Positions 9,574 to 64,000 of a DNA stretch of 64,000 nucleotides are shown piece by piece. The translations under genes were made by a program, and so were the position numbers. Source of the stretch: Patescibacteria group bacterium (GTDB lineage Bacteria; Patescibacteriota; Patescibacteriia; UBA10025; JAHIVO01); NCBI GenBank assembly GCA_041650915.1, contig JBAZKE010000001.1, positions 611,097-675,096 on the forward strand, written 5' to 3'. The notes beneath the pieces were generated by a model. The model was not told where the DNA came from, made no database searches, and saw only the letters and a list, made by a program, of their open reading frames with translations. Position 1 is the first letter of the stretch, and each line of letters opens with the position of its first letter.

Positions 9574-10308
9574 TCAATGTAACTGTTGTTTTTTCTTTTG
9601 CTGTGCGACTAAATTTGATGCCGCGAGCAGTGAATCAAACGATTCCCCTCCATCACCCCACCATCCCTTGAGGATAGAAAATGTCATCGTTCCATCTTTA
9701 ACGTACTTGTTGTTTACGTCCGTAATTTCGAGCTCTCCGCGTTTCGATGGTTTGAGTGTTTTGATATACTTAAAAACTTGGTTGTCATACATGTAAATCC
9801 CAACAACAGCAAGGTTGCTTTCTGGTTTTTTGGGTTTTTCTACAATTTTTTCAATTGTTCGCTTTTTAATGTAAGCGACGCCGAATGAAGATGGATTGTG
9901 CACCTCTTTTAAAAATATTTTTGCCCCGCGTAGCTGTACATCGAAATCCTTGACTGCCTGGACGATATTATCCTGGATGATATTATCTCCCAGAATAACG
10001 ATAACCTTTTCGTTATCCGCAAAATCTTCAGCCAAACCCAGCGCCTGCGCGATACCGCCCGGTTCTTCTTGAACGGCATAGGACAATTTAACGCCCAGAC
10101 TCTTTCCATTTCCTAGCATTTCTAAAAAATGGCCTGCATGCCCCCTTCCGGAAATGAGCAAAATATTATCCACTCCGGCCCGTTTCATCGTTTCGAGCGG
10201 ATAGTAAATCATCGGTTTATCATAAACCGGAAGCAAATGCTTGTTGGTAACTTTAGTAAGCGGGAAGAGCCTTGATCCTGTTCCGCCTGCGAGCACGATG
10301 CCTTTCAT
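9574..10308 (-). CDS. rmlA: Glucose-1-phosphate thymidylyltransferase (short-form RmlA-type sugar nucleotidyltransferase)
   Basis: MKGIVLAGGTGSRLFPLTKVTNKHLLPVYDKPMIYYPLETM is the canonical G.G.R nucleotide-binding loop; 244 aa short form; sits in an operon with rmlC, rmlD and rmlB. Confidence 0.85.
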   Translation of the reverse strand: MKGIVLAGGTGSRLFPLTKVTNKHLLPVYDKPMIYYPLETMKRAGVDNILLISGRGHAGHFLEMLGNGKSLGVKLSYAVQEEPGGIAQALGLAEDFADNEKVIVILGDNIIQDNIVQAVKDFDVQLRGAKIFLKEVHNPSSFGVAYIKKRTIEKIVEKPKKPESNLAVVGIYMYDNQVFKYIKTLKPSKRGELEITDVNNKYVKDGTMTFSILKGWWGDGGESFDSLLAASNLVAQQKKKQQLH

Positions 10309-10331
10309 AGAGTGTGATGATTATGAGAAGG

Positions 10332-10877
10332 TTAAAATGGGGATGAAATATCTGAAAACGGTCCGAGCTGACTGTCTTTGACGGACAGAATTGGCTTATG
10401 GATGGGCCAGTCAATCGAAAGGGTGGGATCATCCCACATAATGCCAGAATCGTGATCCGGAGCATACACATTATCCACCTTATATTGAAATTCAGTATGT
10501 GGTTTAAGCGTACAAAAACCGTGTGCGAAACCGCGCGGGGCATAAATCATTTTAAAATTTTCTGCAGTCAATTCGAATGCTTGCCACTGCCCATAGGTTG
10601 GAGAAGTTTTTCTGAGGTCAACAATGACGTCAAATACTGCACCGCGTGTGACTCGGACTAGTTTCGCTTGTTCAAATGGCGGCAGCTGAAAGTGAATGCC
10701 GCGAAGTACTCCAATTTGCTCAGATCTCGAGTGGTTGTCTTGCACGAACTCTGACGTGATACCTTTATTAAAAAAAACATCTTTCGAGTATGATTCCAGA
10801 AAAAAACCACGTTCATCCTTAAATACTTCAGGTTGGATGAGCCAAGCAGTATCGAATTTGGTTGTGATAAATTTCAT
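10332..10877 (-). CDS. rmlC: dTDP-4-dehydrorhamnose 3,5-epimerase
   Basis: 181-aa cupin protein. FKDERGFFLESYSK, VRVTRGAVFDVIVDLRKTSPTYGQW and YAPDHDSGIMWDDP match RmlC motifs. Confidence 0.9.
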   Translation of the reverse strand: MKFITTKFDTAWLIQPEVFKDERGFFLESYSKDVFFNKGITSEFVQDNHSRSEQIGVLRGIHFQLPPFEQAKLVRVTRGAVFDVIVDLRKTSPTYGQWQAFELTAENFKMIYAPRGFAHGFCTLKPHTEFQYKVDNVYAPDHDSGIMWDDPTLSIDWPIHKPILSVKDSQLGPFSDISSPF

Positions 10878-10878
10878 A

Positions 10879-11718
10879 TTATGGTCGCAGTAAATACGAC
10901 TTGAGCGCTTCTTCCCATCTCCTCATATGTGGCAGCTTCGTATTGAGTAAAACTGAATAGGGAGGCCTTTTTGCAGCGCGTGGATAGAATGACCCAGCCA
11001 CAGGATTGAGCTTAACACTGATGCCCGATTGAGTAAATATTTCTTGTGCGAAACCAAACCAGGTACATGCACCCTGATTCGTAATATGGTACGTTCCGAA
11101 TGGCAGTTGATTATCAATTAAGTATTTTGTCCTATCGGCCAAATCTTTTGCGTACGTAGGAGAAGAGAGCTCCTCATCCACGATATCGAGTTCTTTTTTT
11201 GATTGTGCCAATGTGAGCATAAGCTCAACAAAACTTTTTTTGCCGGATCTGCCTCGTGAGTTCTTTCCAAAGAGCCGGGAGAGGCGGATAATATAGTGGC
11301 AGTGGCACTTTCGGCGTACTTCATTTTCTCCCAGTAGTTTTGATTTGCCATAAATTGAAATTGGATCAGGGATATCATCTTCACGGTATCCCTTAACGAT
11401 ATTGCCGTTGAATACATAATCAGTGCTGAAGTGGACTAAAATGCCTCCAGCTGCTTCAACGGCAGATGCAAGGTATCCGGGGCCGTACCCATTAATATTC
11501 ATGGCAATAGCTTCCTCCCCTTCTGCTTTATCTACATCATTGAAAGCTGATGCATTTATAACGAGACCCGGTTTTTGGTTTGAAACCAGCTGAACCGACT
11601 GTTTCCTGTCGGTTATATCAAAATCTGAGTGATTCCACTGGATTGGCTTATACTCATGAAACGTATTCATCAGTTCCTGGCCGAGCATGCCTTGTGCACC
11701 TATAATGGCTACTTTCAT
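10879..11718 (-). CDS. rmlD: dTDP-4-dehydrorhamnose reductase
   Basis: MKVAIIGAQGMLGQEL Rossmann loop; YGKSKLLGE (Y...K catalytic dyad); 279 aa; ATG overlaps the upstream HD gene. Confidence 0.85.
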   Translation of the reverse strand: MKVAIIGAQGMLGQELMNTFHEYKPIQWNHSDFDITDRKQSVQLVSNQKPGLVINASAFNDVDKAEGEEAIAMNINGYGPGYLASAVEAAGGILVHFSTDYVFNGNIVKGYREDDIPDPISIYGKSKLLGENEVRRKCHCHYIIRLSRLFGKNSRGRSGKKSFVELMLTLAQSKKELDIVDEELSSPTYAKDLADRTKYLIDNQLPFGTYHITNQGACTWFGFAQEIFTQSGISVKLNPVAGSFYPRAAKRPPYSVLLNTKLPHMRRWEEALKSYLLRP

Positions 11719-12308
11719 AGTGAACTATTGCCAGTCATTTTTTTAATTGAATTCTGGACTGTGAGTAAACGTTTTCCTGCTCCGGGGTATTTTCGAAAAC
11801 GGCCATAGGCTTTCTTGAATGTGCCAATATATGGACCTGTTTTTTTTGCATAGCTACAGCGCGCATCACTGTATGCAAGAATTTTTTCTTCAGCGGATTG
11901 AGGAAAAAAATTTTTAGGAAGAAAGCCATTTTTCTTGTTTGTCGCCCTATCGAGCCCGCTTCCGCCTGCATGAGATACGCACATTCGTGCCAGTTCCGGA
12001 TATCCCTTTTTCAACATTATCTCATAACCCGCGTAGCAGTGGATGATTGCAGGCTTTAAAAGTTTCGATCCTTGGCTTCCCGTAACCATCCTGCCGATAT
12101 CATGAATGTAGCATCCCGTCTTCAGCATAGTACTGTTTATTTTCTGCCCGTTATCACGGGCTTGTTTCATGATGCTCCGTGCGAATTTCCATACAGTTTT
12201 AGAATGATCGTTAGTATTGCTTGCCTGCTTAGGAATGCCATTCTCAATTGCGATTTTTCTCATCCATCTCTGTATGGTTGAAATGGTTGGATACCGGCTA
12301 TGTCCCAT
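11715..12308 (-). CDS. HD-domain phosphohydrolase-like protein inserted in the rml operon
   Basis: 197 aa. H...HD...H...D metal-binding arrangement is visible (HSKTVWKFA, CYIHDIGRMV, HCYAGYEIM, SHAGG, YSDARCS). Function not assignable from sequence. Confidence 0.55.
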   Translation of the reverse strand: MGHSRYPTISTIQRWMRKIAIENGIPKQASNTNDHSKTVWKFARSIMKQARDNGQKINSTMLKTGCYIHDIGRMVTGSQGSKLLKPAIIHCYAGYEIMLKKGYPELARMCVSHAGGSGLDRATNKKNGFLPKNFFPQSAEEKILAYSDARCSYAKKTGPYIGTFKKAYGRFRKYPGAGKRLLTVQNSIKKMTGNSSL

Positions 12309-13395
12309 ATTGCTTTTTTAGGTATTCTCGGTGTTCTTTTTTTTGAAGTATCTTTTTCCACCACCACTCATTATTTTGGTACCATGCGATTGTTTTTTTC
12401 AGGTACGTATCGAGGTCATGGAGCGGCCGGTAACCGATTTCTTTTTTTGCCTTTGACCAGTCTACCGCGTACCGTCTGTCATGGCCAGGCCGGTCTTTGA
12501 TAAACTCCACCATTTCATTTCCTTTGCCCATGATTGACAGAACTTTATTGATGAGCGCGAGATTGTCCACGTCCTCAGTCAAGCCGCCAATACAGTACGT
12601 TTGACCAATTTTGCCTTTTGAAAGAATCAGATCAATTGCCCTCGCATGATCGTCTACGTAGAGCCAGTCTCGTATGTATTTTCCGTCGCCGTAGATTGGC
12701 ACCTTCTTCCCCTGCATGACATTAAGGATCGCTACGGGAAGCAGCTTTTCCGGATACTGATATGGTCCGAAGTTATTGGACGTATTTGAAATAGTAATCG
12801 GCAACCCAAATGTCGCGTAGTACGAACGTACAAGATGGTCGGCGCCAGCTTTTGAAGCTGAATACGGGCTCCGTGGGTCGTAGAGCGTTTTTTCATTGAA
12901 CTTACGCGTATCTTCTAATTTGAGCGCACCAAAAACTTCATCAGTTGAAACGTGGTGAAACCGTTTTCCTTCAAAACTACCTTGCTCATTTTTCCATACC
13001 TGTACGGCAGACTCTAGCAAAATATGGGTTCCCCACACGTTATTTAAAATAAAATCATAATTTAAAGAATCGGTAAATAATTCTCCCAGTTCCAGATTGA
13101 GAGTTCCCTTTTCGCGCAGCATAACCGACCTGTCTACGTGGGTACTAGCCGCAAAATGAATTATAGTGTCAATGTTATGCAATTGCAGCGTCTTGATGAC
13201 TTGCTTGATTTCACAAATATCCGCACGAACAAACGTATAGTGCGGATTGTCTTTCAGATCTACCAAATTATCGAGGTTGCCTGCGTATGTCAACTTGTCG
13301 AAATTAACAATCGTATCGCCCGGATGTTCACGCAACCAATAGCGAATGAAGTTTGAGCCGATGAACCCAGCTCCGCCGGTAACGAGTAATTTCAT
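12298..13395 (-). CDS. rmlB: dTDP-glucose 4,6-dehydratase
   Basis: MKLLVTGGAGFIGSNFIRYWL NAD-binding loop; YSASKAGADHLV (Y..K); 365 aa extended SDR. Confidence 0.9.
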   Translation of the reverse strand: MKLLVTGGAGFIGSNFIRYWLREHPGDTIVNFDKLTYAGNLDNLVDLKDNPHYTFVRADICEIKQVIKTLQLHNIDTIIHFAASTHVDRSVMLREKGTLNLELGELFTDSLNYDFILNNVWGTHILLESAVQVWKNEQGSFEGKRFHHVSTDEVFGALKLEDTRKFNEKTLYDPRSPYSASKAGADHLVRSYYATFGLPITISNTSNNFGPYQYPEKLLPVAILNVMQGKKVPIYGDGKYIRDWLYVDDHARAIDLILSKGKIGQTYCIGGLTEDVDNLALINKVLSIMGKGNEMVEFIKDRPGHDRRYAVDWSKAKKEIGYRPLHDLDTYLKKTIAWYQNNEWWWKKILQKKEHREYLKKQYGT

Positions 13396-13931
13396 ATTTT
13401 TAATAGTTTTTTTACACGGACGATGCCTGCGATGGCAGTCGCATCGTTAATAGTACCGTCCGATGCCCACCGGTATGCTATTTGAATCGGTACCGTCAGT
13501 ATTTTTTCGTGCTGTTCTTCCATATCGAGCTTAAATGCATGGTGACGCAGTCCCGTTGCTAAGAATAATCGGGTATCTTCCTGCACCACTCCTGGGCATC
13601 CGTTAACGTATCCGATCGATTTCCAGCTTCGTGCGCTTAAGCCTGTTTCTTCTCGCAATTCACGTTTTGCCGCACTGAGGTGCGATTCCCGTTTTTGCTT
13701 CCCGCCCCAGGGAAGTTCGATTGTCTCATGTCGAAGCGGATAACGCCATTGCCGAATGAGTGCAATTTCCATATTATCATTCAAAGCTACTATTGCAGAA
13801 GATCCGATTGTTTTTACGACTCCGTACGTGCCATGTACTCCCGATTTACGGACGATTACATCTTCACGAACTGTAATCCAGTCATTGTTATATACGATTC
13901 TGGATTTTTTTGTTGTCCATTGATTTTTCAT
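13392..13931 (-). CDS. NUDIX hydrolase (possible nucleotide-sugar pyrophosphatase), co-operonic with rmlB
   Basis: Nudix box GGKQKRESHLSAAKRELREETGL (G.5E.7REUXEE.GU). Track ORF starts at GTG 13937; the first ATG is at 13931. Confidence 0.75.
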   Translation of the reverse strand: MKNQWTTKKSRIVYNNDWITVREDVIVRKSGVHGTYGVVKTIGSSAIVALNDNMEIALIRQWRYPLRHETIELPWGGKQKRESHLSAAKRELREETGLSARSWKSIGYVNGCPGVVQEDTRLFLATGLRHHAFKLDMEEQHEKILTVPIQIAYRWASDGTINDATAIAGIVRVKKLLKI

Positions 13932-13942
13932 TCCCACTTTTT

Positions 13943-15632
<1,690 letters not shown>

Positions 15633-15633
<1 letters not shown>

Positions 15634-17174
15634 CAATTGAAAAGCTTATTTTTTATCTTAGTAAAAAAATTCTGGAAAGTAATAGGCTCTTTTTCAAGCG
15701 ATACTGACACTTCCTGAACATGAAGCAGTCTGCCATTTTCGGGCAGTCCCGGAAGCGTAATGATGAATTGGACAGAATTATCGGAGTAGTAGAGCTCGGG
15801 CACTTCAACTGTCGCAGTGGCCGTATGCCATTGTCCGTTTATTTCCGGCCGCTTATACTCTGCAATAATGTAATCATATCCGTCCAATGATTCTACGTCA
15901 TTGATGTCTGGTATCAACCCAAAAGTCGTATCAAAAAATTGATCTTGGGAAAAAATAAAATAACCGGAGCCCTGGAGGTAAACGTCATTTTTAGGACTAA
16001 CGATTTTTGTCATGCCAGTTAAATCGGTTGCTTCATATTCCGAATGTAAGCCTGTCAGTGCTAATTCCTGGGCTCCCACGGCCAGCGTTTGTAGCCCGTC
16101 ATTATGAGAAGTACGTGCGGAAATTGAAGGTGCATCTGAAAACAATGTAGTTGGCGTGATTATTTTATCTCCGAGAATATCCTGGTACTCTGCGTTATCC
16201 GTCAGATAAATCGAATCATGGAACATGAGTAAATGCTGGTAGCTGGAAATACCCTTTATAAAAACGTCATCATTGGTTTCAATCGCAATCCGGCAGGTCC
16301 CGTGATTCTCCATGGCAAGGGCTACCCTCAGTACTTGTTCATTATGCACACGCCCTGATGCGAATGTTTCGCCGTCATCAGCGACGATATATGACGCGAT
16401 TTCATTACCGCGAAAATCAAAAACATGCACCTGGATTGAATCTTCACCTTCGTGCCTGTTAATATCCTGGAATGAAAAGGTTATATCGAGCTGCTCATCA
16501 ATGCCAACATACGTGAAAATTTCATGGCTACCGCGCAAACTTTTTGTAATAGTCAATGGAACACTTTGAGCACGGTACCCGGGCATGACTTCCGATTTCA
16601 GGACAGGATAGTTGTACTGCAAGATTTCATTATCAGCAGGCCGGTCGTTTAAAAATTCATCAATTGTCAGGTAATTCCGCTTGCCCCGCTGCAGTAGGAT
16701 CAAATCACCTTCTTGAATGCTTTTCCAATCGCTCGTTCCGACAGAATTAATGACGTCTTCGATCGTTGGACTATAGTGTGCCATGGTTTCAAAAGCGTAT
16801 TGGCCGTCTGATTGCAGCACACCGAGGTTAAGAACTGGTTGTGCGTCCGGATTTTGATACGTGATGGAAATCGTCGCCTTAGGAAAAGGCCGGGGAACAT
16901 TGAGTGTAAAATACAGTGGTGACGTTGTAATCAACTGAGTTACTGCTTGGCCCCCTGACTCATCTTCCGAGCTGAAGTATCGCACTGGCTCTTTGGATGC
17001 GAAATTGCTTATAGATTTTGATCCATGCTCCGCGGTATATTGGAGTTCAAGCATTCCACCCGGTGCATAGTTTTGTACGATGATCCAGCCAATGAGAACC
17101 ATCGGGAGCAGCCAGATAGCGGTGCGCCAGTTCCAAATATTTTTAAAAACTTTCTTAATTCTTTCCAGCTCCAT
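15633..17174 (-). CDS. N-terminally membrane-anchored large extracellular protein (P1, 513 aa), paralogous to the 38426..39994 product; function unknown
   Basis: One N-terminal TM (AIWLLPMVLIGWIIVQNYA) then a hydrophilic, beta-rich region. Shares blocks with the 38426 protein (ISITYQNPDAQPVLNLGV versus VITVQYNPQNESEALLGIK; FDFRGNEIASYIVADDGE versus YDATGNEKLHVSLKDDGN). Directly downstream of a GT-C-like membrane protein. Confidence 0.5.
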
Positions 17175-18886: not shown

Positions 18887-18960
18887 ATTGCTTTCACCAG
18901 TATACCACCCTGAGCCGCCTTTTCAAAATGCTTTTTTGTTGATAGTATGATAGCTGGCAT

Positions 18961-19341
18961 ATGAAAAAAAATGAACTCATTATTAGCCTTGTTTCCTTCG
19001 GATTCCTCGTTCTGATCGCTTTCATTCTCAGCTTTTTTTTAACACTGTCGGAAGCCTTTCGCCTTGTGTTTGGGACGATGTTTATCCTTTTTATCCCCGG
19101 ATTCGCGTGGAGCTGGATTTTTTGGAAGCGCGGCAGTATCGATGCAATCGAACGCGGGACACTGTCGATAGCGCTCTCTATTGCTTTTGTACCGCTCACA
19201 ACGTACTTGCTCTTCAAAGCCGGAATCGCCATTTCTTTATTCAATGTTTTGATCGAAGTCGCTGGTCTTATTATCGCGGCAATCGTGATAAAGTATTATG
19301 CCGATAAAAAAGAGAAGCGCCTGGGTTTTAAAAAACCATAA
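18961..19341 (+). CDS. Small 4-TM membrane protein, GtrA-like (candidate polyprenyl-phosphate-sugar flippase)
   Basis: 126 aa with four hydrophobic helices and a basic C-terminal tail (KYYADKKEKRLGFKK). Size and topology typical of the GtrA family; located between a GT-C-like gene and a UbiA gene. Confidence 0.4.
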   Translation: MKKNELIISLVSFGFLVLIAFILSFFLTLSEAFRLVFGTMFILFIPGFAWSWIFWKRGSIDAIERGTLSIALSIAFVPLTTYLLFKAGIAISLFNVLIEVAGLIIAAIVIKYYADKKEKRLGFKKP

Positions 19342-19385
19342 ATTACTAAGTTTCGACCGTGCAGCTCCTGTATTTTATAAAATCA

Positions 19386-21364: not shown

Positions 21365-21374
21365 ATAGTAGCGT

Positions 21375-22631: not shown

Positions 22632-22633
22632 CT

Positions 22634-25438: not shown

Positions 25439-25445
25439 AGTACAA

Positions 25446-51175: not shown

Positions 51176-51193
51176 CATTAAACGATTTAAACC

Positions 51194-53559: not shown

Positions 53560-53569
53560 CTGACAAGTC

Positions 53570-56321: not shown

Positions 56322-57233
56322 ATGCGCTTTGATACCGCACCAGCGAGAGTTTCAATCATAATACTCAATTGGAATGGCCTTGATGATACCATAGAATGCT
56401 TGGAGTCCCTGAAAAAAATTGATTACCCGAACTACAGCATCAGTGTAGCAGACAACGGTTCAGAACACGGAGATGCCGATCTGCTTAAAAAAAAATATGG
56501 CAATTTCATTCGAGTTATTGAGTATAAAACAAACCTCGGTTTTGCTGAAGGTAATAATAGAGCTATAACAATACTGCTCGGCGAGGGCCAAAGTGATTTT
56601 ATACTTCTCCTGAACAACGATACAGTCGTCAGAGGTGATTTTCTTTCGAAACTGGTTGACGTAGCTCTTCGTAATGAAACGATAGGAATTATCGGCTCAA
56701 AAAATTACTTCTACACACCCGAAAGGAAAACTAACCGAATTTGGTGTAACGGGGCAAAAATCGCTTGGTGGCAAGGAAGCATTAAGCATTTTCAAAAAGA
56801 AAGGCACGTGCCTGCTGATATGCCTTACTTTGACTCAGAATTTGTTGTCGGCAGTGCTATGCTCATTAGGACTTCAGTTTTTAAAACAGTTGGGTTGCTT
56901 GATCCTTCGTATTTTTGCTACGGTGAAGATGGCGACTTTTGTTTACGTGCTAAAAAACACGGATACCAATCAGTGTATGCGCCAGCGTCCGTTATTTGGC
57001 ACAAAATTAACCAATCATTAACATCTTTTTCCCCAAACTATACGTACCTTGTCACGCGCAATAAATTTTGGCTTATAAAAAGAAACTTTATTTGGTTTAA
57101 ATATGGCGTCTTTGTCATTGTTTTTCTTGCGGTCAAGCAGCCTCTCTGGGTGGCACGCTTTCTCTGGCGGGGAAATTTCCTTCAAATCTTTTATTTTTAC
57201 CGCGGTATTATCGATGGCCTCATGAAAAACTAG
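56322..57233 (+). CDS. Glycosyltransferase family 2 (WbbL/rhamnosyltransferase-like)
   Basis: VSIIILNWNGLDDTIECLESL, SISVADNGSEHGD, NLGFAEGNNRAI, LLNNDTVV. Confidence 0.8.
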   Translation: MRFDTAPARVSIIILNWNGLDDTIECLESLKKIDYPNYSISVADNGSEHGDADLLKKKYGNFIRVIEYKTNLGFAEGNNRAITILLGEGQSDFILLLNNDTVVRGDFLSKLVDVALRNETIGIIGSKNYFYTPERKTNRIWCNGAKIAWWQGSIKHFQKERHVPADMPYFDSEFVVGSAMLIRTSVFKTVGLLDPSYFCYGEDGDFCLRAKKHGYQSVYAPASVIWHKINQSLTSFSPNYTYLVTRNKFWLIKRNFIWFKYGVFVIVFLAVKQPLWVARFLWRGNFLQIFYFYRGIIDGLMKN

Positions 57234-59162
57234 CTAGTGCCAAATATTTTTTGTTTTGCTATCCACCGTCAAGTTTTCATCATAGTATTGCGAAATAAAC
57301 TCCTGAACGAACTGACCTTCAACTCTATACAAATTAAGGCTGATTTGGGCTGTTGATGACGGAAGAGGAGGGTTGTTCTTGGTGCAGTCTCCCTCAAACT
57401 GAGCGTAGCTGCGAAAAAGGCTTGGGGTAGTGAGATACTTGCGGAGATCGCATGTCGATCCGGCAATTTTCATTATTGACGACGTCATCTTCTCAACAAA
57501 CTCGAGATGACCGTCAAAGTACGGATGTATCGAGTCGCCGGTTAACTCCTTGGTCGATGCCAAATAGACATTGTCGTATTCTTTCATGATGGAAGCGTAT
57601 ATTTCTTTTCCAAAAGCAGGAATCCTGTCGAATGCAACGTTCGTATCGTAGAGAAAAAAGAGCGGCGGCCCAAAATTTTCATACCGGTACCGGTCCCAAA
57701 AAAATACAACATCATTCTCAGTGAAATGTGATGCAATTTTTTCTTCATACTCGAGCATCCCACCACCGTTGGCGGACAGCAGCATTGTTATGCCCGGCAA
57801 CGAAATGATGATAAAGAGAAGCACCGTAATCGTGATAAAGATTTTCCTGGATGCACGGTGCAAGAGGCCGCTTTTGTTCACCAAAAAACATGCGAATAAG
57901 ATAAATGCAAACGTGAAAAATACTGCCCAGTAGCGGCGTACAAACCAGGGAAGATAAAAAGCGATACCCGGGCGCAGTAAAAATGCGAACTGCGGAAGTA
58001 TGAGAAAAAAGACGAGCATGAGTTTCTGCTTCACCACCCTCTCTTCTTGGAAAAAATTGACCACCCCAAGAAAAAATATCATCACAAAAACAGGAGTAAA
58101 CATGTAAAACATGCTGGCAAAAATAAAGACCTGCTGATTGTACGGGACATACTCAGCAGGGCCCCATGCGAGCGACGCTTCGACTTGGTTATCTTTGATG
58201 AAACTGAGCGCAGGATCAAGAAAAGACGGATCAAACTCAAGCAGGCTCAGTAATACCGCCACGCCGAAGAGGACTGGCAAAAGATACTTCCACCAATGCC
58301 GGAAGTTTATTTTTACCGTTTTTCTGAACAAAAAAACAATAACGATCAAACAGTACACGATAATGTATAAAAACGCTTCGAGCCGGACTGTCATGAGCAG
58401 AACAAGCGGTACGAGAGAAAAAACTATCCACCCAAATTGCTTTTTTTGGAAGCCCCGGACAAACGAATAAACGTAAAACCATGTGAATAAAAGCTGGAGG
58501 TTTTCAACAAACGTCGATCGCGAAAAATATAATGTATAGTAATTTAGCAGAAAAAAGATGACCCACAGCACGCCAATTTTCCAGTTCTTGACACGCTTGA
58601 GCAAAAAGTAAATCAGCGAAGTAGAAAAGAAAAGAATAAAGCAATTGGCGACTTTTATGCCACTGATGCCAAAGAGCGAATAGAAGATTGATAAAAATAC
58701 GGCATTCCCGGGAACAAAGTGGTGCCGCAATAAGCCGTTTTCATACGGGAAAAAACCGGGAACCGCATACGCAAAAGGCGTTTCCGCTGGATCAAGCCAC
58801 AGCGAACCGGTCTTGGCAAGCAGTATCCCAGATTCAAGGTACCCCCCTTGATCATGGCCGCCTTCGATGAGATACTCCGAAAAGTAGAATGAGCTGATGG
58901 TACATATCAATAATATAAAACAAATCGTCAAATAGTCTATTCGGTAATTTTTAAATTGGATGGCTTTACGGTTGACTACGATTACAGCGATACTATAGAC
59001 GGCAGCGAGCAGGCAGAGGGCAGGCAGAGCTGCTTGAAAAAACGTGTACGCATCCAAAACGGCGCAGCAGAGTGCAATACTAAAAATTCCGAGGATTATG
59101 ACAATGGACCGGATGAATAAATTTTCTAAAAAATTTTTATTGATATGGAATAACGCACCCAT
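57234..59162 (-). CDS. Large polytopic membrane protein (M4, 642 aa, more than 14 TM), GT-C-like or YfhO-like glycosyl-modification candidate
   Basis: Hydrophobic throughout. First loop EGGHDQGGYLESGILLAKTGSL with acidic residues. Stop abuts the GT2 gene on the opposite strand. Confidence 0.4.
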   Translation of the reverse strand: MGALFHINKNFLENLFIRSIVIILGIFSIALCCAVLDAYTFFQAALPALCLLAAVYSIAVIVVNRKAIQFKNYRIDYLTICFILLICTISSFYFSEYLIEGGHDQGGYLESGILLAKTGSLWLDPAETPFAYAVPGFFPYENGLLRHHFVPGNAVFLSIFYSLFGISGIKVANCFILFFSTSLIYFLLKRVKNWKIGVLWVIFFLLNYYTLYFSRSTFVENLQLLFTWFYVYSFVRGFQKKQFGWIVFSLVPLVLLMTVRLEAFLYIIVYCLIVIVFLFRKTVKINFRHWWKYLLPVLFGVAVLLSLLEFDPSFLDPALSFIKDNQVEASLAWGPAEYVPYNQQVFIFASMFYMFTPVFVMIFFLGVVNFFQEERVVKQKLMLVFFLILPQFAFLLRPGIAFYLPWFVRRYWAVFFTFAFILFACFLVNKSGLLHRASRKIFITITVLLFIIISLPGITMLLSANGGGMLEYEEKIASHFTENDVVFFWDRYRYENFGPPLFFLYDTNVAFDRIPAFGKEIYASIMKEYDNVYLASTKELTGDSIHPYFDGHLEFVEKMTSSIMKIAGSTCDLRKYLTTPSLFRSYAQFEGDCTKNNPPLPSSTAQISLNLYRVEGQFVQEFISQYYDENLTVDSKTKNIWH

Positions 59163-59167: not shown

Positions 59168-60094
59168 CTACTTTTTAACTCTTGCTACAGCAATGAGTTC
59201 TGGTCCACGTTTAAATATATTCAGAAGGTATTCTATAGGAATCAGCAACATGCCTGCCGCATTAACGAACCTGTAGAGCACGTAGTTTCTCTTTCGGATC
59301 GATTGTTCCTGGCCATGTGCCGCGGAACTGCGTTTCCCTTTAATAATACCTGCCCTGCAGAGAACTGCAAAGAGCAGTGTGAGCAATAGCGAATGCGCAT
59401 CTCCCCTTCTCGTCTTGATACTGACTACGCCAAAACCGTTTTTTTCAAGTAATAAGCGCAATGTTGCTGGAGAAAAGAAAAAAAGGTGCGCCGGAGGCGA
59501 CATCCACTCCCATACGCCGCGAGAAAATCGTGCCGCGAAACTCGCGATATTTGGCGTCTTAATATACAGTACGCCATTTGCTTCCAACAGCTGCGCAGCG
59601 CGCTGAATGTAACTCGCTGGGTCAACCGTGTGTTCTATGATATGGCGCATCGCCATCACGTCGAATTTCCTTTCAGGCAAGTAGGTGAGCAAATCTGCGC
59701 ATTCGATTTCAACGCCCAGCTTTTGCTGCCCATGGCGGACCGCTTTTTTCGAAAAATCAATTCCTCGAACATGCCACCCTTCTTTTTTTGCAGCAAGGAC
59801 GAAAAGCCCGGAGCCGCAGCCTACGTCCAACATCGCACCTTTTCGAGATGCTGCTTTATCAACTATCCTAATATCACGCCGTTCACTTCTTCCTGTGCGC
59901 ATGCGGTACATGTACGAATAGTCATATGCCGTAGCGTAGTACTCGCCGATTGAATGCTGGTCGGGTTGTGGATTTATTAATACCATTCCACAAGAGCCGC
60001 ACTGAACGACATTATAAACATTTCCAGACCTTGCTGCAAGGTACAGGAAAGCATATTGGTTACTGCCGCATACGGTACACGTAATGTGCTTCAT
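59168..60094 (-). CDS. Class I SAM-dependent methyltransferase with an N-terminal double C..C zinc-ribbon
   Basis: MLDVGCGSGLFVLAAKKEGWHVRGIDFS, FDVMAMRHIIEHT. N-terminal CTVCGSN...CGSCGM. Start moved from the track's 60160 to ATG 60094, which makes an ATGA overlap with the GT9 stop. Confidence 0.65.
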   Translation of the reverse strand: MKHITCTVCGSNQYAFLYLAARSGNVYNVVQCGSCGMVLINPQPDQHSIGEYYATAYDYSYMYRMRTGRSERRDIRIVDKAASRKGAMLDVGCGSGLFVLAAKKEGWHVRGIDFSKKAVRHGQQKLGVEIECADLLTYLPERKFDVMAMRHIIEHTVDPASYIQRAAQLLEANGVLYIKTPNIASFAARFSRGVWEWMSPPAHLFFFSPATLRLLLEKNGFGVVSIKTRRGDAHSLLLTLLFAVLCRAGIIKGKRSSAAHGQEQSIRKRNYVLYRFVNAAGMLLIPIEYLLNIFKRGPELIAVARVKK

Positions 60095-61104
60095 ATAGGT
60101 TGTGCCATAAGCGTATCGATTGCAGCTATAACATCTGATACACTGATTGATTCCATGCAAAGCCGGTCAGCGTAAGCGCATTTTTTTGCATCGCAAGGGG
60201 GATTGCATTTTTTTCGATTTATAATATTTCTGACAATTTTTGCATTGCTATTGTACGGATCCCACTGGAATGAAGAAGGGCCGCAAATTGCGATTTGGCG
60301 CTTTTTTAACGCAGCGCCAATCCACATTGGCCCTGAATTGTGGGTAATCAATAAAAATGCCTGATTGATAAACGCTGCTAATTCTTTAATGTTAAACTGA
60401 TCTATGAGATTGATTACCGCAGTGCTCTTTCGAATGCGTGAGAATACTTCATTTGCAATAATGCCATCGCTGCCTGCACCAATAAAAAAAATTTTATTGC
60501 TGGCATGGCGAGTGAGGTGATCAATGACTTGCGCCCATTTTACGCTTCCCCAGGAACGATTCAGATAACCCTGTTTATACCCGCAGTGGATAATAATTAT
60601 TCTATCTCCCGAGTTAATCTGGTGTCTGTATAAAATTGTATTGACTGTTTCATCCACGTTGCGCAGATCGAACGGCCATATCGGTTTCGCAGGGTCAATA
60701 CTATCGGCAATTCCGTCTTGACGGAGCGTTGAAAAGCCCTTTTCAATAATATTTTTATTACTGAAAATTTTTTCTTTAGAAACGAACTTTTTTTTAGCTT
60801 TGATGAAGCGTAGCAGCATTCTTGACTTATATGCCTGCGGAAACGGAGAAAAGAGGATGTCAAATCTCATCCTGCGTAACTGAATCATGCTTTTCCACAA
60901 TAATAAATTTTTTTTTCGTTTAATTTCAAAGAATGTATCAATTGACGGGTGAGACAAAAACAACTCCTGATGCGGAGTATCGGCCGCAATGTACTTTATT
61001 TCAGAATTGGGATACCGTTTTTTGATTGATTGTAATATCGGCGAAGCGACAATAAAATCACCTAAGCTATGAGACCAAACAAATGCGATTTTAATTTTTT
61101 GCAT
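60091..61104 (-). CDS. Glycosyltransferase family 9 (ADP-heptose-dependent heptosyltransferase-like)
   Basis: KIAFVWSHSLGDFIVASPILQSIKKRYPNSEIKYIA (GT9 N-terminal signature) and ITHNSGPMWIGAALKKRQIAICGPS (compare DsGpMHlAaAlg.P.valFGPt). Track start is TTG 61110; the ATG at 61104 is preferred. Confidence 0.75.
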   Translation of the reverse strand: MQKIKIAFVWSHSLGDFIVASPILQSIKKRYPNSEIKYIAADTPHQELFLSHPSIDTFFEIKRKKNLLLWKSMIQLRRMRFDILFSPFPQAYKSRMLLRFIKAKKKFVSKEKIFSNKNIIEKGFSTLRQDGIADSIDPAKPIWPFDLRNVDETVNTILYRHQINSGDRIIIIHCGYKQGYLNRSWGSVKWAQVIDHLTRHASNKIFFIGAGSDGIIANEVFSRIRKSTAVINLIDQFNIKELAAFINQAFLLITHNSGPMWIGAALKKRQIAICGPSSFQWDPYNSNAKIVRNIINRKKCNPPCDAKKCAYADRLCMESISVSDVIAAIDTLMAQPI

Positions 61105-61111
61105 ATTCAAA

Positions 61112-61870
61112 TTAAGAACCCTGCTTTTTCAAAATGAAAATAAATCCAGGAGACAATGGCTTCAAGCATGCGTATACTCTTCGAGGAATTTTTGTCAGCA
61201 AGGAATTTGATTTAACAACATCCGTATTAAAAAATCTTTCCGGTTCAGAAAGCACCCGATAAGTGTAATCAATAACCGTGAACGGTGCAATAATTTTTTT
61301 TAAATTAAAGTATGATAAATGATTTTCATAATATTTTTCTCCTTTTTTTACACTTTTCATATAAAAATTCGCCAATGATTTTGGGAGCCATGACAAAAAA
61401 GGAAGGTGATAGTGGGGCTCCATTACTTTGAATCGGTTACCGGCTCCAAAATAGCAGATTCCATTCTCTTTTAATATCCGATAAATCTCACGCATTAATA
61501 TTTCAGATGACGGCACGTGCTCGTAAACTTGATTGCAGATGACAACTGAAATGGAATCATTTCGAAAGGGCAATCGCATCGCATCGCCGACTTGGTAATG
61601 AATATTTTTAGCACAGTTATGTTTCTTGCCATACTCCAGTGCTTGTTCATCAATGTCCACAACATAGACTTCTTTTGCCCGTTTGCTCAGCTCAACCGCT
61701 GTGAATCCCGCTGATCCACCGATGTCAACGCAGATTGAATTGGCCAGGCTGCCGCCCGTGCTATTAAAAAAATGTTCAATAATCGTAACAATTTTTTTTG
61801 CCTTATTGATGCGTACGTCTGGGTCAAGGACAGAGGAATTTACCGATGAAAATCGCTGCTGATATTTCAT
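61112..61870 (-). CDS. Class I SAM-dependent methyltransferase
   Basis: CVDIGGSAGFTAVEL (motif I), VYVVDIDEQALEYG, ISVVICNQVYEHV. Confidence 0.7.
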   Translation of the reverse strand: MKYQQRFSSVNSSVLDPDVRINKAKKIVTIIEHFFNSTGGSLANSICVDIGGSAGFTAVELSKRAKEVYVVDIDEQALEYGKKHNCAKNIHYQVGDAMRLPFRNDSISVVICNQVYEHVPSSEILMREIYRILKENGICYFGAGNRFKVMEPHYHLPFLSWLPKSLANFYMKSVKKGEKYYENHLSYFNLKKIIAPFTVIDYTYRVLSEPERFFNTDVVKSNSLLTKIPRRVYACLKPLSPGFIFILKKQGS

Positions 61871-61914
61871 ACCTGCGCCAACCTAAACATTAAATCGCAC
61901 TGTAATAAGCCTAT

Positions 61915-63120
61915 TTATATGTATTTTTGAAAAACTTCAATAAAACGACTTGTCACTGAATCCCAGCTAAACTGGCGATACACGCGCTCTAAGCCATTTT
62001 GTTTTAGCGTATGCCTGAGCGGTGCATTATTCAAGAGCTCTATTACCGCATCGGCGATTGCCCGTGGCTGCTTTTCTGGAACGAGCATGCCTGTCATGCC
62101 GTTGGTAATGATATCCGAGATGCCGCCAACATCAGAAGCTACAACATTGACCCCTGAGGCGAGTGCTTCTAAGAAGACGACGCCGAGCCCTTCTAAGCCA
62201 TCTGATGTCGAAGGGCCGATAAATACGTCTGCCGTGGCAAAGTACGGCGGTAACTGACTATTGGGTAAGCTGCCAATAAACTTTACACTTTTTTTTATAT
62301 GGAGTGCATTAACAGCATCGTACAGCTGATCCTTGAGCACCCCATCTCCAATAACAACGAGTACCGCATCCGAATATTTTTCTAATATGCGCGGCATGGC
62401 TTCGATGAGGTATCTTACTCCTTTTTTTTCAGCAAGCCGCCCAACAAAGAGAAGCCAGGGTCCGGTAATATGAAGAGAAGCCCTCAAGCTCATCGACCGT
62501 TTCAAAGGGTTGAACGTCTCTACTGAAACGCCCATTGGTATGGTGGAAATCAATGCCCGCGTACTGGCATGCCCAGTCAGCTGACCGGTGGCCGTACTGT
62601 TGACCGTACATTCGCTGCAACGCGAAAGACAATATTGTATGAGGGAACGGCCGATAATTGAACGTGCTTGCAAAATATCATCACCATGGATAGTAACTAC
62701 AAAAGGAATGTCGGTGATTTTACTAGCCAACGCCGCTAAAAATCCTTGGGGGACGATCCAGTGGGCGTGGATGAGGTGTATACGCTCTCTGCGCACCAGC
62801 CGAACCGTGGCAAGGAGCTGAAATAAAAAAAGAAGCGGAACTTGGATATACAGCAGCTTATTTCTTTTTAAATTCGGCTGAATGCCTCCCCTATAGCACA
62901 GCTTCTGCAGCGATGCCGGCCAAAAATACTGGTACCGCACAACGGTTACCTCGCCCATCCGTTCTCTTTTCTTAGCCCCGTCATAGTGAGGTGCCATAAC
63001 CGTCACATCGTAGGTACTGGCCAGCCGGCGTGCGAGTTCAAAAACAAAGAGAGGCGTGCTATCTGATTCCCAGCGAGGAAATGTCGTTGTTGTAACTAAA
63101 ATCTTCCGTTTGTCCATCAT
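61915..63120 (-). CDS. Glycosyltransferase family 4
   Basis: FVGRLAEKKGVRYLIEAM...ATADVFIGPSTSDGLEGLGVVFLEALASGVNVVASDVGGISDII; 401 aa. Confidence 0.8.
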   Translation of the reverse strand: MMDKRKILVTTTTFPRWESDSTPLFVFELARRLASTYDVTVMAPHYDGAKKRERMGEVTVVRYQYFWPASLQKLCYRGGIQPNLKRNKLLYIQVPLLFLFQLLATVRLVRRERIHLIHAHWIVPQGFLAALASKITDIPFVVTIHGDDILQARSIIGRSLIQYCLSRCSECTVNSTATGQLTGHASTRALISTIPMGVSVETFNPLKRSMSLRASLHITGPWLLFVGRLAEKKGVRYLIEAMPRILEKYSDAVLVVIGDGVLKDQLYDAVNALHIKKSVKFIGSLPNSQLPPYFATADVFIGPSTSDGLEGLGVVFLEALASGVNVVASDVGGISDIITNGMTGMLVPEKQPRAIADAVIELLNNAPLRHTLKQNGLERVYRQFSWDSVTSRFIEVFQKYI

Positions 63121-63135
63121 GATAGTACTTGTACG

Positions 63136-64000
63136 TCAACGAAGCGATCTATGATTGTAGTGCTGTTTCTTATTAAAGTACAGATTTTCTTCCTCAATCC
63201 TCCGTATTCTCCCCATCATATCCGCTATGAGAGCGAGAATAATGAGTAGAAAACCAAGTATCACAAAAACACCGCCAACGATGATTAATGATTGGAACGG
63301 TGCTGTATTGCCGGTTGCAGCCCAGTGAATAAATACAAATAACTCCACAACAAAACCGATGCCGATTAAGGCCAGCCCGATAATCCCAAAAAATTTCAGC
63401 GGTTTAAAATCTCTCATGGCGCGCAGCATGATGATCAGCGACCGAATACCGTACCGAATTACATTTTTTGCTACACGGGAATCACCATGTTCCCGCTGGC
63501 CGCGAATTTTCAGCGGTATTTCAATGACCGGGACTTTTTTCTGCACTAAATCGATAAACGTCTCTTGGGTATAGGTAAAATCACCAAAAAGATTTATTCG
63601 GAGTGCGGTATCATGGTTCATCGCACGAAAACCGCACGAAACGTCGGTAAAATGCTGCTTTGTGATGAAATTAATAATCCCGGCAACAAAATGATTACCA
63701 AATTTCTTGAAAAACGGCATTTTCGGCGTTAAACTTTTATCTTTAAACCGAGAAGCGGTAACAAAGCCGGCGATGCCATTGAGGATTGGCTGGATCAAGG
63801 CAGGTATGTCGAATGGATCAAACTGCAAGTCGGCATCCATATTGACGATAACGTCACCGCCATGCTTGAGCGCAGTCAAAACACCGGTTGAAAAAGCCGC
63901 GCCGACTCCCATATTAGTCGCATGGCTTACTACCGTAGCCCCCTTCTCACGCGCTAAAAACGCTGTTTTGTCCGTTGATCCGTCATCAATAACGATGACT
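63136..64000 (-). CDS. GtrB/DPM1-like GT2 polyprenyl-phosphate glycosyltransferase with two C-terminal TM helices (N-terminus beyond the 3' edge)
   Basis: The frame continues past the track's ATG at 63912 to the window edge (reverse-complement translation of 63913-64000 gives ...VIVIDDGSTDKTAFLAREKGATVVSHATN). GT-A motifs (DADLQFDP) and C-terminal TMs (FFGIIGLALIGIGFVVELFVFI, LIIVGGVFVILGFLLIILALIADMMG). Confidence 0.75.
   Translation of the reverse strand, partial: VIVIDDGSTDKTAFLAREKGATVVSHATNMGVGAAFSTGVLTALKHGGDVIVNMDADLQFDPFDIPALIQPILNGIAGFVTASRFKDKSLTPKMPFFKKFGNHFVAGIINFITKQHFTDVSCGFRAMNHDTALRINLFGDFTYTQETFIDLVQKKVPVIEIPLKIRGQREHGDSRVAKNVIRYGIRSLIIMLRAMRDFKPLKFFGIIGLALIGIGFVVELFVFIHWAATGNTAPFQSLIIVGGVFVILGFLLIILALIADMMGRIRRIEEENLYFNKKQHYNHRSLR

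Follow-up and report, generated by a model that had tools for sequence, protein, structure and literature searches.

The 64,000-nucleotide stretch analysed here (the window; positions 611,097 to 675,096 of contig JBAZKE010000001.1, assembly GCA_041650915.1) belongs to a member of the Patescibacteria, or candidate phyla radiation (CPR), a Parcubacteria/Komeilibacteria-like bacterium. From the rmlA gene at position 9574 to its end, the window carries a genuine envelope-glycan locus that is unusually large for a genome of such scale. The locus is a composite of a lineage-conserved core, insertions and swappable cassettes. With a probability of roughly 0.6, its product is a rhamnose-containing, wall-associated glycopolymer with strain-variable side chains, made as several separate products.

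A conserved core with insertions and swappable cassettes

All open reading frames (ORFs) of the window were listed, and every plausible gene was scanned against Pfam and NCBIfam. The NCBIfam equivalog cutoff served as the threshold for identity, and scores below it are read at family level only. Between 9574 and the window end there are 53 genes and a conserved ORF of 64 amino acids (aa), and 43 of the 53 genes belong to glycan biosynthesis by hidden Markov model (HMM) and fold evidence, in agreement with a preliminary description of the window that had considered nearly every gene from rmlA to the 3' edge to be glycan-related. The remainder consists of five housekeeping or ambiguous genes, encoding HD, NUDIX, S-adenosylhomocysteine (AdoHcy) hydrolase, GpsA and lactate/malate dehydrogenase proteins, and five genes without a family, encoding two small transmembrane (mini-TM) proteins, two beta-sandwich ectoproteins and one DUF1616-like protein. 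The transferases amount to 17, i.e., seven firm and one weak GT4, four GT2, one GT9 and four of GT-C type. The eight GT4 or GT4-like enzymes counted earlier are thereby reached if the weak one is included; the five GT2 enzymes (three plus two DPM1/GtrB-like) are reduced to four in the window, two of soluble type and two resembling polyprenyl-phosphate-sugar synthases. The HMM scans reproduced the single GT9, two Wzx flippases, three methyltransferases, two hexapeptide acetyltransferases and one VimE-like deacetylase, and one ATP-grasp protein is probable from weak matches (E 1e-4 to 0.06). The locus genes form nine co-directional strand blocks, consistent with the proposed minimum of six transcription units, and the GC content of the window is 41.8%, not markedly low as had been stated.

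The locus extends ~4.7 kb beyond the window, to window-equivalent position 68,656, as seen in contig L083. There, the rest of a GT2 is followed, in order, by a UDP-N-acetylhexosamine (HexNAc) 6-dehydrogenase-type enzyme, two epimerases of the short-chain dehydrogenase/reductase (SDR) family, another GT2, GtrA and a subtilisin. In total, the locus measures ~59 kb, 54.4 kb of it within the window, and takes up ~8.7% of the 680-kb contig, the largest one assembled. It is highly improbable that such a region is a product of chimeric assembly or that it was recently acquired, by horizontal transfer, as one foreign block, and for the locus as a whole this explanation is refuted. The Logan assembly is split within rmlA, and the GC content of the second cassette deviates strongly, as such an origin would predict. 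However, the NCBI (679,916 bp, tags WC505_02995 and WC505_03055), ENA (540 kb) and Logan (58.5 kb) contigs are identical in proteins and gene order across the whole window, and since three assemblies agree, chimerism is excluded. The two Logan contigs overlap within rmlA by approximately the k-mer length, according to coordinate arithmetic, and the split thus reflects a graph branch and not a join. Furthermore, the left 32 kb is syntenic in relatives at 35-85% protein identity and anchored to housekeeping genes, and the window contains no repeats of at least 40 bp, no tRNA genes, no mobile-element genes and no match to Rfam.

The comparison with relatives, whose contigs are designated L, separates the core from the rest. 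The order CTP synthase-L9-S41-MurA-PEGA-rmlA/C/D-(HD)-rmlB-(NUDIX)-AdoHcy hydrolase is preserved in nine of them (L002-L009, L027), and the left-flank CTP synthase is 78-85% identical to that of Patescibacteria/Parcubacteria metagenome-assembled genomes. Kerfeldbacteria contig L169 retains the block from the PEGA gene over the rml, NUDIX and AdoHcy hydrolase genes to the GT-C gene triad described below, and there the block lies next to a Wzm/Wzt ABC exporter whose Wzt carries a Wzt_C domain. A second block, comprising GT-C, ectoprotein, mini-TM, GT2, DUF2304, three GT4, the 64-aa ORF, GT-C and two GT4 genes, keeps its order in L085, L086 and L167, with identities of 35-83%. Computed from contig ranges, CTP synthase and the conserved GT-C gene lie 36.9 kb apart in JAHIVO01 and 36.8 kb apart here. 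The conserved core thus delimited spans 9.6-41.5 kb, and instead of the one island initially described, the left ~32 kb is a syntenic core of the lineage, anchored to CTP synthase, L9, S41, MurA and PEGA. It includes the rml operon with AdoHcy hydrolase and triad A, GlmU with the diacetamido-sugar set, the GT4 array, GT-C enzymes and a GacI/GacJ-type pair. Three parts differ between relatives, namely the ADP-heptose operon, a phosphoribosyltransferase gene and everything past 41.6 kb.

The conserved GT-C gene at 41.5 kb is followed by a different cassette in each of four genomes, and every one of these cassettes includes a Wzx flippase. In the genome studied here, cassette 1 consists of Wzx, a GT2, a GT4-like gene and a 6-deoxy-HexNAc route. 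The cassettes of L085 (6726-8808) and L086 (6668-8715) encode CysD-like (PAPS_reduct), CysN-like (GTP_EFTU) and Phosphodiest-family proteins, gene contents that hint at sulfated or phospho-decorated glycans in those genomes, and the L167 cassette encodes CapK-, DUF362- and GH88-like genes. The variability suspected in the preliminary description is thus borne out by four cassettes at one junction in four related genomes. The accompanying idea of a single product found no evidence. According to this idea, the whole 54-kb region would make one very complex heteropolymer, a single glycoconjugate, which is quite unlikely. The genes are contiguous with almost no interruption and distant parts appear interdependent, as a stretch of 25 kb separates the GT9 from the heptose operon and one of 40 kb separates a putative 6-dehydrogenase from the remaining diacetamido-sugar genes. 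Yet the locus has not one Wzx flippase but two distinct ones, lipid-monophosphate donors come from three to four different systems, its modules have independent evolutionary histories, with a conserved core and cassettes swapped among relatives, and it is divided into nine strand blocks, with a distinct GC content in cassette 2.

Two flanking genes deserve comment. CTP synthase homologs with 61-65% identity occur on contigs labelled Woesearchaeota, Nanoarchaeia, Micrarchaeota and Methanosarcinales (L014-L017, L022, L025), and several close CPR matches carry the label 'uncultured Gammaproteobacteria'; these odd labels reflect either mislabelled bins or gene sharing between CPR and DPANN archaea. 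The PEGA-domain protein (8248-9534, +) flanks the locus in every relative examined and is 21-29% identical between relatives, as compared with 31-68% for MurA and 67-85% for CTP synthase. It is a surface protein that evolves fast and could serve as a glycan acceptor.

Nucleotide-sugar routes and soluble enzymes

The preliminary description had named four nucleotide-sugar pathways, and all four routes are present, with one label corrected below. The dTDP-L-rhamnose pathway is represented by all four Rml enzymes at 9574-13395. These are a short-form glucose-1-phosphate thymidylyltransferase, RmlA (9574-10308, -; PF00483 205 bits; TIGR01207 251 bits, below the cutoff of 360), which is syntenic in relatives, the dTDP-4-dehydrorhamnose 3,5-epimerase RmlC (10332-10877, -; PF00908 233 bits), the dTDP-4-dehydrorhamnose reductase RmlD (10879-11718, -; PF04321 262 bits) and the dTDP-glucose 4,6-dehydratase RmlB (12298-13395, -), the latter scoring 424.7 bits against TIGR01181 and exceeding the cutoff of 365.1. 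An HD-domain phosphohydrolase (11715-12308, -; PF01966, TIGR00295-like 57 bits) is encoded within the operon, with an L004 ortholog in the same position, and a NUDIX hydrolase resembling NudE/ADP-sugar pyrophosphatase (13392-13937, -; PF00293, NF008736 52.9 bits) is kept in L004, L005 and L169. Both genes are thus retained inside the operon in several relatives, and their products might hydrolyse nucleotide sugars or serve as phosphoribose phosphatase. Next to them lies AdoHcy hydrolase (13943-15199, -; PF05221 and PF00670), which is syntenic at 66-76% identity in L003, L007-L009 and L027 and found by Pfam in the same position in L169. Its task would be to recycle what the three methyltransferases release, unless it has a housekeeping role.

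The diacetamido-sugar set spans 20309-26528 on the + strand. It begins with a GFO/IDH/MocA oxidoreductase (20309-21364; Pfam), a candidate UDP-HexNAc(A) 3-dehydrogenase of WbpB/GnnA-like type with 140.6 bits to NF040723 (cutoff 450), and an alternative bifunctional GlmU for UDP-GlcNAc synthesis (21375-22631; TIGR03991 364.6 bits, above the cutoff of 225.3). After a GpsA-type NAD-dependent glycerol-3-phosphate dehydrogenase (22634-23650; Pfam) follow a hexapeptide N-acetyltransferase in a WbpD-like role (23739-24335; PF00132 71.9 bits, NeuD/PglB/VioB subfamily 84 bits), a DegT/DnrJ/EryC1 sugar aminotransferase in a WbpE-like role (24332-25438; PF01041 422.5 bits) and a non-hydrolysing UDP-HexNAc 2-epimerase of WecB/WbpI type (25446-26528; TIGR00236 310.4 bits, above the cutoff of 210). 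The best equivalogs of the 6-dehydrogenase-type gene just past the window, as seen in L083, are UDP-ManNAc dehydrogenase and TviB. By this homology, it could supply the WbpA-type step and so complete a WbpA/B/E/D/I-type route, which fits the presence of a VimE-like deacetylase in cassette 2, since that family is named for a diacetamido-glucuronate substrate. The odd presence of GpsA is accounted for by L168, a relative with ~46% identity, where positions 1-3118 encode, in this order, NTP_transf_3, GpsA, a GT4 and a CDP-glycerol glycerophosphotransferase resembling TagF. This teichoic-acid-like module is not present in the genome of the window.

The ADP-heptose pathway is encoded by a contiguous operon (33077-35706, -), in which all assignments are family-level calls. 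It comprises the sedoheptulose-7-phosphate isomerase GmhA (35104-35706; SIS family, PF13580 (SIS_2) 92 bits), the heptose-7-phosphate kinase HldA (34089-35090; TIGR02198 317.8 bits, cutoff 345), a GmhB-like HAD phosphatase (33552-34085; HAD-family Pfam matches) and a 160-aa heptose-1-phosphate adenylyltransferase, HldC (33077-33559; TIGR02199 151 bits, cutoff 181.5). No HldD 6-epimerase was found in the window, and an SDR protein past its end scores higher as GalE (194 bits) than as a heptose epimerase (130 bits); given the lack of HldD, the D,D-heptose is expected. The operon forms a clean 2.7-kb segment (32967-35722) between two GT4 genes that are adjacent in L085, L086 and L167. As the heptose genes are missing at that exact site in three of three relatives, the segment is an insertion. 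The GT9 cognate to the operon is located 25 kb away, in the distal block.

The GT4 array of the core surrounds this insertion. Upstream lie two enzymes on the + strand (26601-27749, PF00534 128 bits; 27751-28971, PF00534 116 bits), the second with 36% identical orthologs in L085, L086 and L167. Three more are encoded on the - strand at 30745-31944 (PF00534 111 bits; 63% identity in L167), 31950-32966 (PF00534 109 bits; 52-67% in L085, L086 and L167) and 35722-36942 (PF00534 135 bits; 43-57% in relatives).

Cassette 1 opens with Wzx flippase 1 (41764-43113, +; PF01943 61 bits), which has a GC content of 34%, followed by a soluble-type GT2 (43124-43990, +; PF00535 102 bits) and the weak GT4-like protein (43987-45270, +; PF13692 27.7 bits, E 3.6e-6). 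It continues, all on the + strand, with a second copy of a WecB-type UDP-HexNAc 2-epimerase (45370-46461; TIGR00236 269 bits, above the cutoff of 210), an inverting UDP-GlcNAc 4,6-dehydratase of the PseB/FnlA/CapE class (46469-47452; PF02719 310 bits) and a 295-aa RmlD-like 4-reductase (47456-48343; PF04321 53.9 bits, TIGR01214 51.6 bits). This triad had been taken for an L-FucNAc-like set. The inverting-dehydratase class is established, with 323 bits to PseB (cutoff 407), yet the FnlA score is 264 bits against a cutoff of 730 and no FnlB/CapF-type 3-epimerase/4-reductase is present, the 295-aa protein having no WbcJ/CapF/WbjC-type match and fitting RmlD models only. The L-FucNAc assignment is therefore not upheld at equivalog level, and from these scores the third HexNAc route (45370-48343) may be called a 6-deoxy-L-HexNAc route only. 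The reductase may resemble WbvR of the L-RhaNAc/L-QuiNAc route.

A housekeeping lactate/malate dehydrogenase (48561-49574, -; PF00056 and PF02866) lies between both cassettes. Cassette 2 (49691-55009, +) has a GC content of 29-39% and a GC content at third codon positions (GC3) of 25-37%, compared with 41.8% for the window, and its composition is the clearest compositional sign of recent acquisition. It opens with Wzx/MOP flippase 2 (49691-51175; PF01943 87 bits, MatE 38 bits), in which GC and GC3 are as low as 29% and 25%. The best sigma-70-like match in the 38-52 kb interval (11 of 12 positions) is located just upstream of this gene, at 49593-49621; promoter and terminator scans gave a signal not above shuffled background. 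The flippase gene is followed by genes for a methyltransferase dependent on S-adenosylmethionine (SAM) (51194-51898; Methyltransf_11 and related Pfam families), the probable ATP-grasp ligase (51879-53084), whose matches are weak (PRK06849 E 1e-4, PurK E 1.5e-3, ATPgrasp_Ter E 0.035, PylC E 0.064), a LacA/WbbJ-like hexapeptide O/N-acetyltransferase (53068-53559; PF00132 56 bits) and the VimE-like deacetylase (DUF7033; 53570-55009; PF23019 84.5 bits). The last scores 211 bits against NF053580, a UDP-2,3-diacetamido-2,3-dideoxy-glucuronate deacetylase model with a cutoff of 440.

Further downstream lie a GT4 (55021-56310, +; PF13439 46.8 bits, PF00534 26.1 bits) and a weakly rhamnosyltransferase-like GT2 (56322-57233, +; PF13641 73 bits, TIGR01556 67 bits, below the cutoff of 200). 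After a polytopic protein discussed below, the distal block on the - strand encodes a SAM-dependent methyltransferase (59168-60160; PF13489 88 bits), the GT9 heptosyltransferase (60091-61110; PF01075 60 bits, heptosyltransferase II 74.6 bits, below the cutoff of 134.6), another SAM-dependent methyltransferase (61112-61870; PF08241 74.8 bits) and a GT4 (61915-63120; PF00534 149 bits).

Lipid-linked donors, GT-C enzymes and the repeated triads

Besides these soluble enzymes, the locus encodes predicted synthases of polyprenyl-phosphate sugars. One of these, overlooked in the preliminary description, is an accessory polyprenyl-phosphate 5-phosphoribosyltransferase (19359-20234, +), a DPPR synthase homolog of the UbiA family with 287.6 bits to the decaprenyl-phosphate phosphoribosyltransferase model NF008977 (cutoff 234). 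It matches the Mycobacterium tuberculosis structure PDB 8J8J over its full length (E 1.5e-34) with the NDxxDxxxD motif intact. The protein is single-domain, with 291 aa corresponding to residues 194-478 of the two-domain model NF006088, and its gene is divergently paired with that of GT-C A. It is missing at its position in L168, and a metagenome scan with this UbiA homolog found only distant homologs (at most 53% identity) in unrelated contexts. A DprE1/DprE2 epimerase (FAD_binding_4/ALO-type protein) is not found in the window, and by its lack the pentose is more likely to be ribofuranose than arabinofuranose. A PAP2 phosphatase is also not found in the window; HD and HAD proteins exist in the locus.

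Also missed initially was a GacI/GacJ-type (PpgS/DUF2304) pair in the core. It consists of a GT2 of 224 aa without TM helices (37233-37907, -), a polyprenyl-phosphate HexNAc/hexose synthase of GacI/PpgS/DPMS type scoring 160.6 bits to PpgS (NF058614, cutoff 370), and a DUF2304 small membrane protein resembling the GacJ/Rv3632-type activator (36860-37231, -; PF10066 83.7 bits, above the cutoff of 25.5). The GT2 matches the DPMS structure PDB 5MLZ (E 1.4e-11) as well as ArnC, and the two proteins are 83% and 78% identical in L167, respectively. Their adjacency, with gene ends that overlap, is that of GacI/GacJ and PpgS/Rv3632, in which the small protein stimulates the polyprenyl-phosphate-HexNAc synthase and a GT-C uses the product (10.1101/180810). 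The second GT2 synthase, of AglJ/ArnC/GtrB type and with two C-terminal TM helices, is cut by the window end (63136-64000, -). The possibility that this terminal gene (63136-63912) is truncated or a pseudogene was rejected, as the frame leaves the window and encodes 321 aa in L083, where the full-length copy matches AglJ (142.9 bits) and ArnC (67 bits). GtrA is found only past the window end, and the Wzx proteins are present in the locus but not next to the synthases.

The enzymes expected to spend such donors are the four large GT-C-like proteins noted earlier, which were confirmed by a PMT_2 match, a predicted fold and hhalign homology, the fourth by weak matches; none of them is a Wzy. GT-C A (17219-18886, -) has 555 aa and belongs to the PMT_2 family (PF13231 32.8 bits, above the cutoff of 26.1); its orthologs are 40-41% identical in L168 and L169, and 26% in L170. 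GT-C B (39997-41538, -), a protein of 513 aa and the last gene of the conserved core, has eight homologs, an invariant Asp42 and no Pfam or NCBIfam family. An AlphaFold2 model built from 12 sequences (pLDDT 70.7, pTM 0.73) was compared with PDB using Foldseek, and the top seven matches are all GT-C enzymes (DPY19, ArnT, PglB, AftA, AftD) with TM-scores of 0.45-0.58, among them DPY19 at 0.58, AftA at 0.56 and ArnT at 0.54, followed by a steep fall. According to the model, GT-C B has a GT-C fold. The third enzyme (28975-30591, +), a GT-C-type polytopic transferase of 538 aa with 11 TM helices, is a distant paralog of the GT-C B family (hhalign 98.8%, E 8e-17 over 446 columns) and 69% identical in L167. 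The fourth (57234-59162, -), with 642 aa and 12 TM helices, is GT-C-like by weak matches to PMT_2 (E 0.0017), LA_3751 and Agl23 and by hhalign probabilities of 68-73% to GT-C A and B. A Wzy identity of the polytopic proteins without annotation was ruled out by the GT-C fold, with a TM-score of 0.10 to WaaL. On the opposite strand, the conserved 64-aa hydrophobic ORF (30548-30742, -) overlaps the 3' end of the third GT-C gene; it is called at the same position in L082, L084 and L167, the L167 copy being clearly alike in sequence.

Two of the GT-C genes form part of repeated GT-C/ectoprotein/mini-TM triads, which likewise had escaped the preliminary description. Together with the phosphoribosyltransferase and the GacI/GacJ-type pair, these triads tell most about the mechanism. 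In triad A, GT-C A is accompanied by a 513-aa beta-sandwich ectoprotein with an N-terminal TM anchor (15633-17174, -; no Pfam family) and by a mini-TM protein of 139 aa with 2-4 TM helices (15217-15636, -; no Pfam or NCBIfam family). In triad B, GT-C B is accompanied by an ectoprotein of 522 aa (38426-39994, +), a paralog of ectoprotein A (E 5e-16) that matches the A1 profile at E 1e-85, and by mini-TM protein B (37904-38383, -), a paralog of mini-TM protein A (E 2e-8) whose orthologs in L086 and L167 are 35-41% identical and whose place in L084/L085 is taken by a mini-TM ORF. The GT-C partners are also related, as those of triad A link to the triad-B family with an hhalign probability of 95.5%. 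A relationship of the mini-TM proteins to GtrA or DUF2304 was rejected (hhalign probability <1%). For ectoprotein A, AlphaFold2 predicts an N-terminal TM helix and an all-beta multi-sandwich ectodomain (pLDDT 90.2), for which Foldseek found only low-scoring jelly-roll/beta-sandwich matches in PDB (TM-score ~0.14) and a profile search of PDB sequences found no match. The ectoprotein family comprises 1,743 clusters at 50% identity, 898 of them at E <=1e-30, and has no Pfam model; its named members all come from Patescibacteria. Near GT-C A, a small DUF1616-like membrane protein of 126 aa (18961-19341, +; PF07760 46.9 bits, above the cutoff of 31.6) is its divergent partner, an arrangement kept in L168; an ORF on the opposite strand (18894-19244, -) was dropped in favor of this gene, which matches DUF1616.

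The gene context was inspected in eight triad instances from six genomes (the window twice, L168, L169, L170, L084/L085, L086 and L167). The ectoprotein gene adjoins that of a 500-556-aa polytopic GT-C-type protein in all eight, and on its other side a protein of 122-159 aa with 3-5 TM helices is encoded in six; in L170 the small protein is two genes off, and L168 ends at the contig edge. The genes of triad A run in the direction of the rml genes and are fixed beside PEGA, MurA and S41 across classes. Emb/AftD-type enzymes carry fused carbohydrate-binding domains, and it may be speculated, with considerable reservation, that the triad is an undescribed extracytoplasmic glycosylation machine common in Patescibacteria, whose lectin-like subunit gives acceptor recognition or chain-length control in trans.

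The probable product and its known counterparts

The preferred reading, a rhamnose-containing wall-associated glycopolymer made as several separate products, can be cast as a sequence of steps. In the cytoplasm, soluble GT4, GT2 and GT9 enzymes would assemble at least one kind of oligosaccharide, linked to polyprenyl diphosphate, using dTDP-Rha, a UDP-diacetamido sugar, ADP-D,D-heptose and UDP-6-deoxy-L-HexNAc as donors and a carrier primed by an enzyme that would be encoded elsewhere in the genome. Both Wzx proteins would then flip the oligosaccharides across the membrane. In parallel, three or four polyprenyl-monophosphate sugars would be made by the PpgS/GacI-like GT2 with DUF2304, the AglJ/ArnC-like GT2, the phosphoribosyltransferase and a further GT2 with GtrA past the window. 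Finally, the four GT-C enzymes would spend these donors outside the membrane and thereby extend or decorate the glycan, following the logic of the GtrABC, GacIJKL and PPPRS-type three-component schemes (10.1101/180810; PMC11194591). The VimE-like deacetylase of cassette 2 would remodel the diacetamido sugar.

Several points weigh against this reading. No window ORF matched an initiating phosphoglycosyltransferase of WecA/WbaP type (PF00953, PF02397) or Wzz, genes that may be located elsewhere in the genome, or Wzy (Wzy_C, EpsG), and the window likewise contained neither an ABC exporter nor an LCP ligase, absences on which the preliminary description had been silent. Without a primer, Wzy, Wzz/polysaccharide co-polymerase (PCP), ABC exporter or LCP protein in the window, both polymerisation and the use of a diphosphate carrier for assembly are assumptions. 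The 17 glycosyltransferases have no assigned donor or acceptor specificity, and the 3-dehydrogenase, HldA/HldC, PpgS-like GT2, VimE-like protein and GT9 score below their equivalog cutoffs. Neither DprE1/DprE2 nor a dedicated phosphoribose phosphatase was found, and the pentose could be ribofuranose or arabinofuranose. Moreover, the PMT_2-family GT-C proteins and the AglJ-like GT2 would fit protein glycosylation equally well.

This last point leads to the main alternative, a rather unlikely one, in which the locus serves mainly protein glycosylation. The GT-C proteins would act as oligosaccharyl- or O-glycosyltransferases that pass oligosaccharides or single sugars to Ser, Thr or Asn residues of a surface protein, either an S-layer or PEGA protein or a type IV pilin. 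No polymer would be made, and Wzy, Wzz and LCP would not be needed, consistent with their absence, together with that of an ABC exporter, from the window. GT-C A belongs to PMT_2, a protein O-mannosyltransferase-type family, the terminal GT2 is closest to AglJ of archaeal S-layer N-glycosylation, and the PEGA-domain surface protein always flanks the locus. A pilin precedent exists in TfpW, where D-arabinofuranose modification employs a DPPR-synthase homolog (10.1101/2020.04.19.049825; PMC11194591). In addition, ~10 kb upstream of the window start in the same genome, contig L001 encodes a 648-aa PMT/PMT_2-family GT-C (12906-14852), which heads a co-directional block with PilB (T2SSE), PilC (T2SSF), PilM, PilN and PilO. 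By this context, it is a candidate pilin glycosyltransferase and would make a fifth GT-C near the locus. However, the window holds no pilin or recognisable S-layer gene, and a prepilin motif scan of it was empty. PMT_2/GT-C folds also act on lipid and polysaccharide acceptors, as in ArnT, AftA and GacL, some of which are among the fold matches of GT-C B. In Kerfeldbacteria, the rml/triad block adjoins a Wzm/Wzt exporter with Wzt_C, an arrangement typical of polysaccharide export, and 17 transferases are many for a protein glycan.

The locus also has counterparts among known systems. The streptococcal gacA-L loci for the group A carbohydrate and related rhamnose-rich cell-wall polysaccharides, with their GacI-GacJ-GacK-GacL side-chain system, similarly include dTDP-rhamnose genes, a Wzx-type flippase and a GT-C (10.1101/180810), and they share with the locus the 224-aa soluble-type GT2 directly beside a DUF2304 protein, as in GacI/GacJ, and the combination of a conserved backbone with variable decorations. 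In contrast to them, no recognisable GacB/C/F/G-type set of rhamnan GT2 enzymes is present here, the window has no GacO/TagO primer, GacH or LCP ligase, and the ABC exporter is not in the window, although Kerfeldbacteria L169 has one. The locus instead has four GT-C enzymes where gacA-L has one, along with four nucleotide-sugar routes, and by score its GT2 stands closer to PpgS of mycobacteria (160 bits, below cutoff). Three-component pentofuranose systems consist of a polyprenyl phosphoribose synthase, a MATE flippase and a GT-C (Kelly et al. 2024, PMC11194591). As in these systems and the mycobacterial DPPR/DPA pathway (Rv3806c), the locus has a UbiA-family enzyme above the equivalog cutoff that matches the Rv3806c structure, a divergent GT-C neighbor and a MOP/MATE-like flippase elsewhere. 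Yet the enzyme is single-domain without a fused HAD phosphatase, DprE1/DprE2 are not present, the flippase is not adjacent, and the phosphoribosyltransferase gene is missing in at least one relative (L168).

Similar partial likenesses hold for the remaining systems. Wzx/Wzy O-antigen and capsule clusters also carry sugar-nucleotide genes, glycosyltransferases and Wzx in low-GC cassettes that differ at a fixed chromosomal junction, whereas here Wzy, Wzz/PCP and an initiating transferase are missing and the possible Wzy candidates are GT-C by fold. The host lineage was reported without genes for lipid A or lipopolysaccharide (LPS) (PMC5220378). Like the WbpA/B/E/D/I set for UDP-ManNAc3NAcA in Pseudomonas aeruginosa, the locus has adjacent 3-dehydrogenase, aminotransferase, N-acetyltransferase and 2-epimerase genes and a 6-dehydrogenase-type gene just past the window, and it has a VimE-like deacetylase as in Porphyromonas gingivalis; in contrast, all but the 2-epimerase fall below equivalog cutoffs and the dehydrogenase lies 40 kb away, and the sugar made may be either the neutral or the uronic-acid form. 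Within the CPR, metagenomics has described Parcubacteria genomes rich in glycosyltransferases, e.g., 'Ca. Parcunitrobacter nitroensis', which lacks LPS genes and encodes ~20 glycosyltransferases and all four rml genes, read as genes for polysaccharide, glycoprotein or S-layer glycans (PMC5220378). That count is genome-wide, while the genes described here lie side by side in a single locus, in which the core, the insertions and the swappable cassettes can be told apart. The catalytic families are all known, core-plus-cassette glycan loci are classical in other bacteria, and the GT-C/ectoprotein/mini-TM triad is the least known element of the locus.

Most of the ultrasmall CPR episymbionts remain uncultured, and next to nothing of their surface chemistry has been characterised. 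For such a cell, the locus supplies a concrete inventory of the sugars, the lipid-linked donors and the GT-C enzymes. The map of conserved and swapped genes indicates which of them are candidates for making a conserved glycopolymer of the wall and which may determine, strain by strain, how hosts or phages are recognised. The ectoprotein, as a large family without annotation, is marked out for structural and biochemical work. If the proposed role of the triads is true, triad A would assemble, for the CPR, an equivalent of teichoic acids or of wall polysaccharides based on rhamnose, and the swappable cassettes would give each strain a surface identity of its own, which would matter for attachment to hosts and for recognition by phages.

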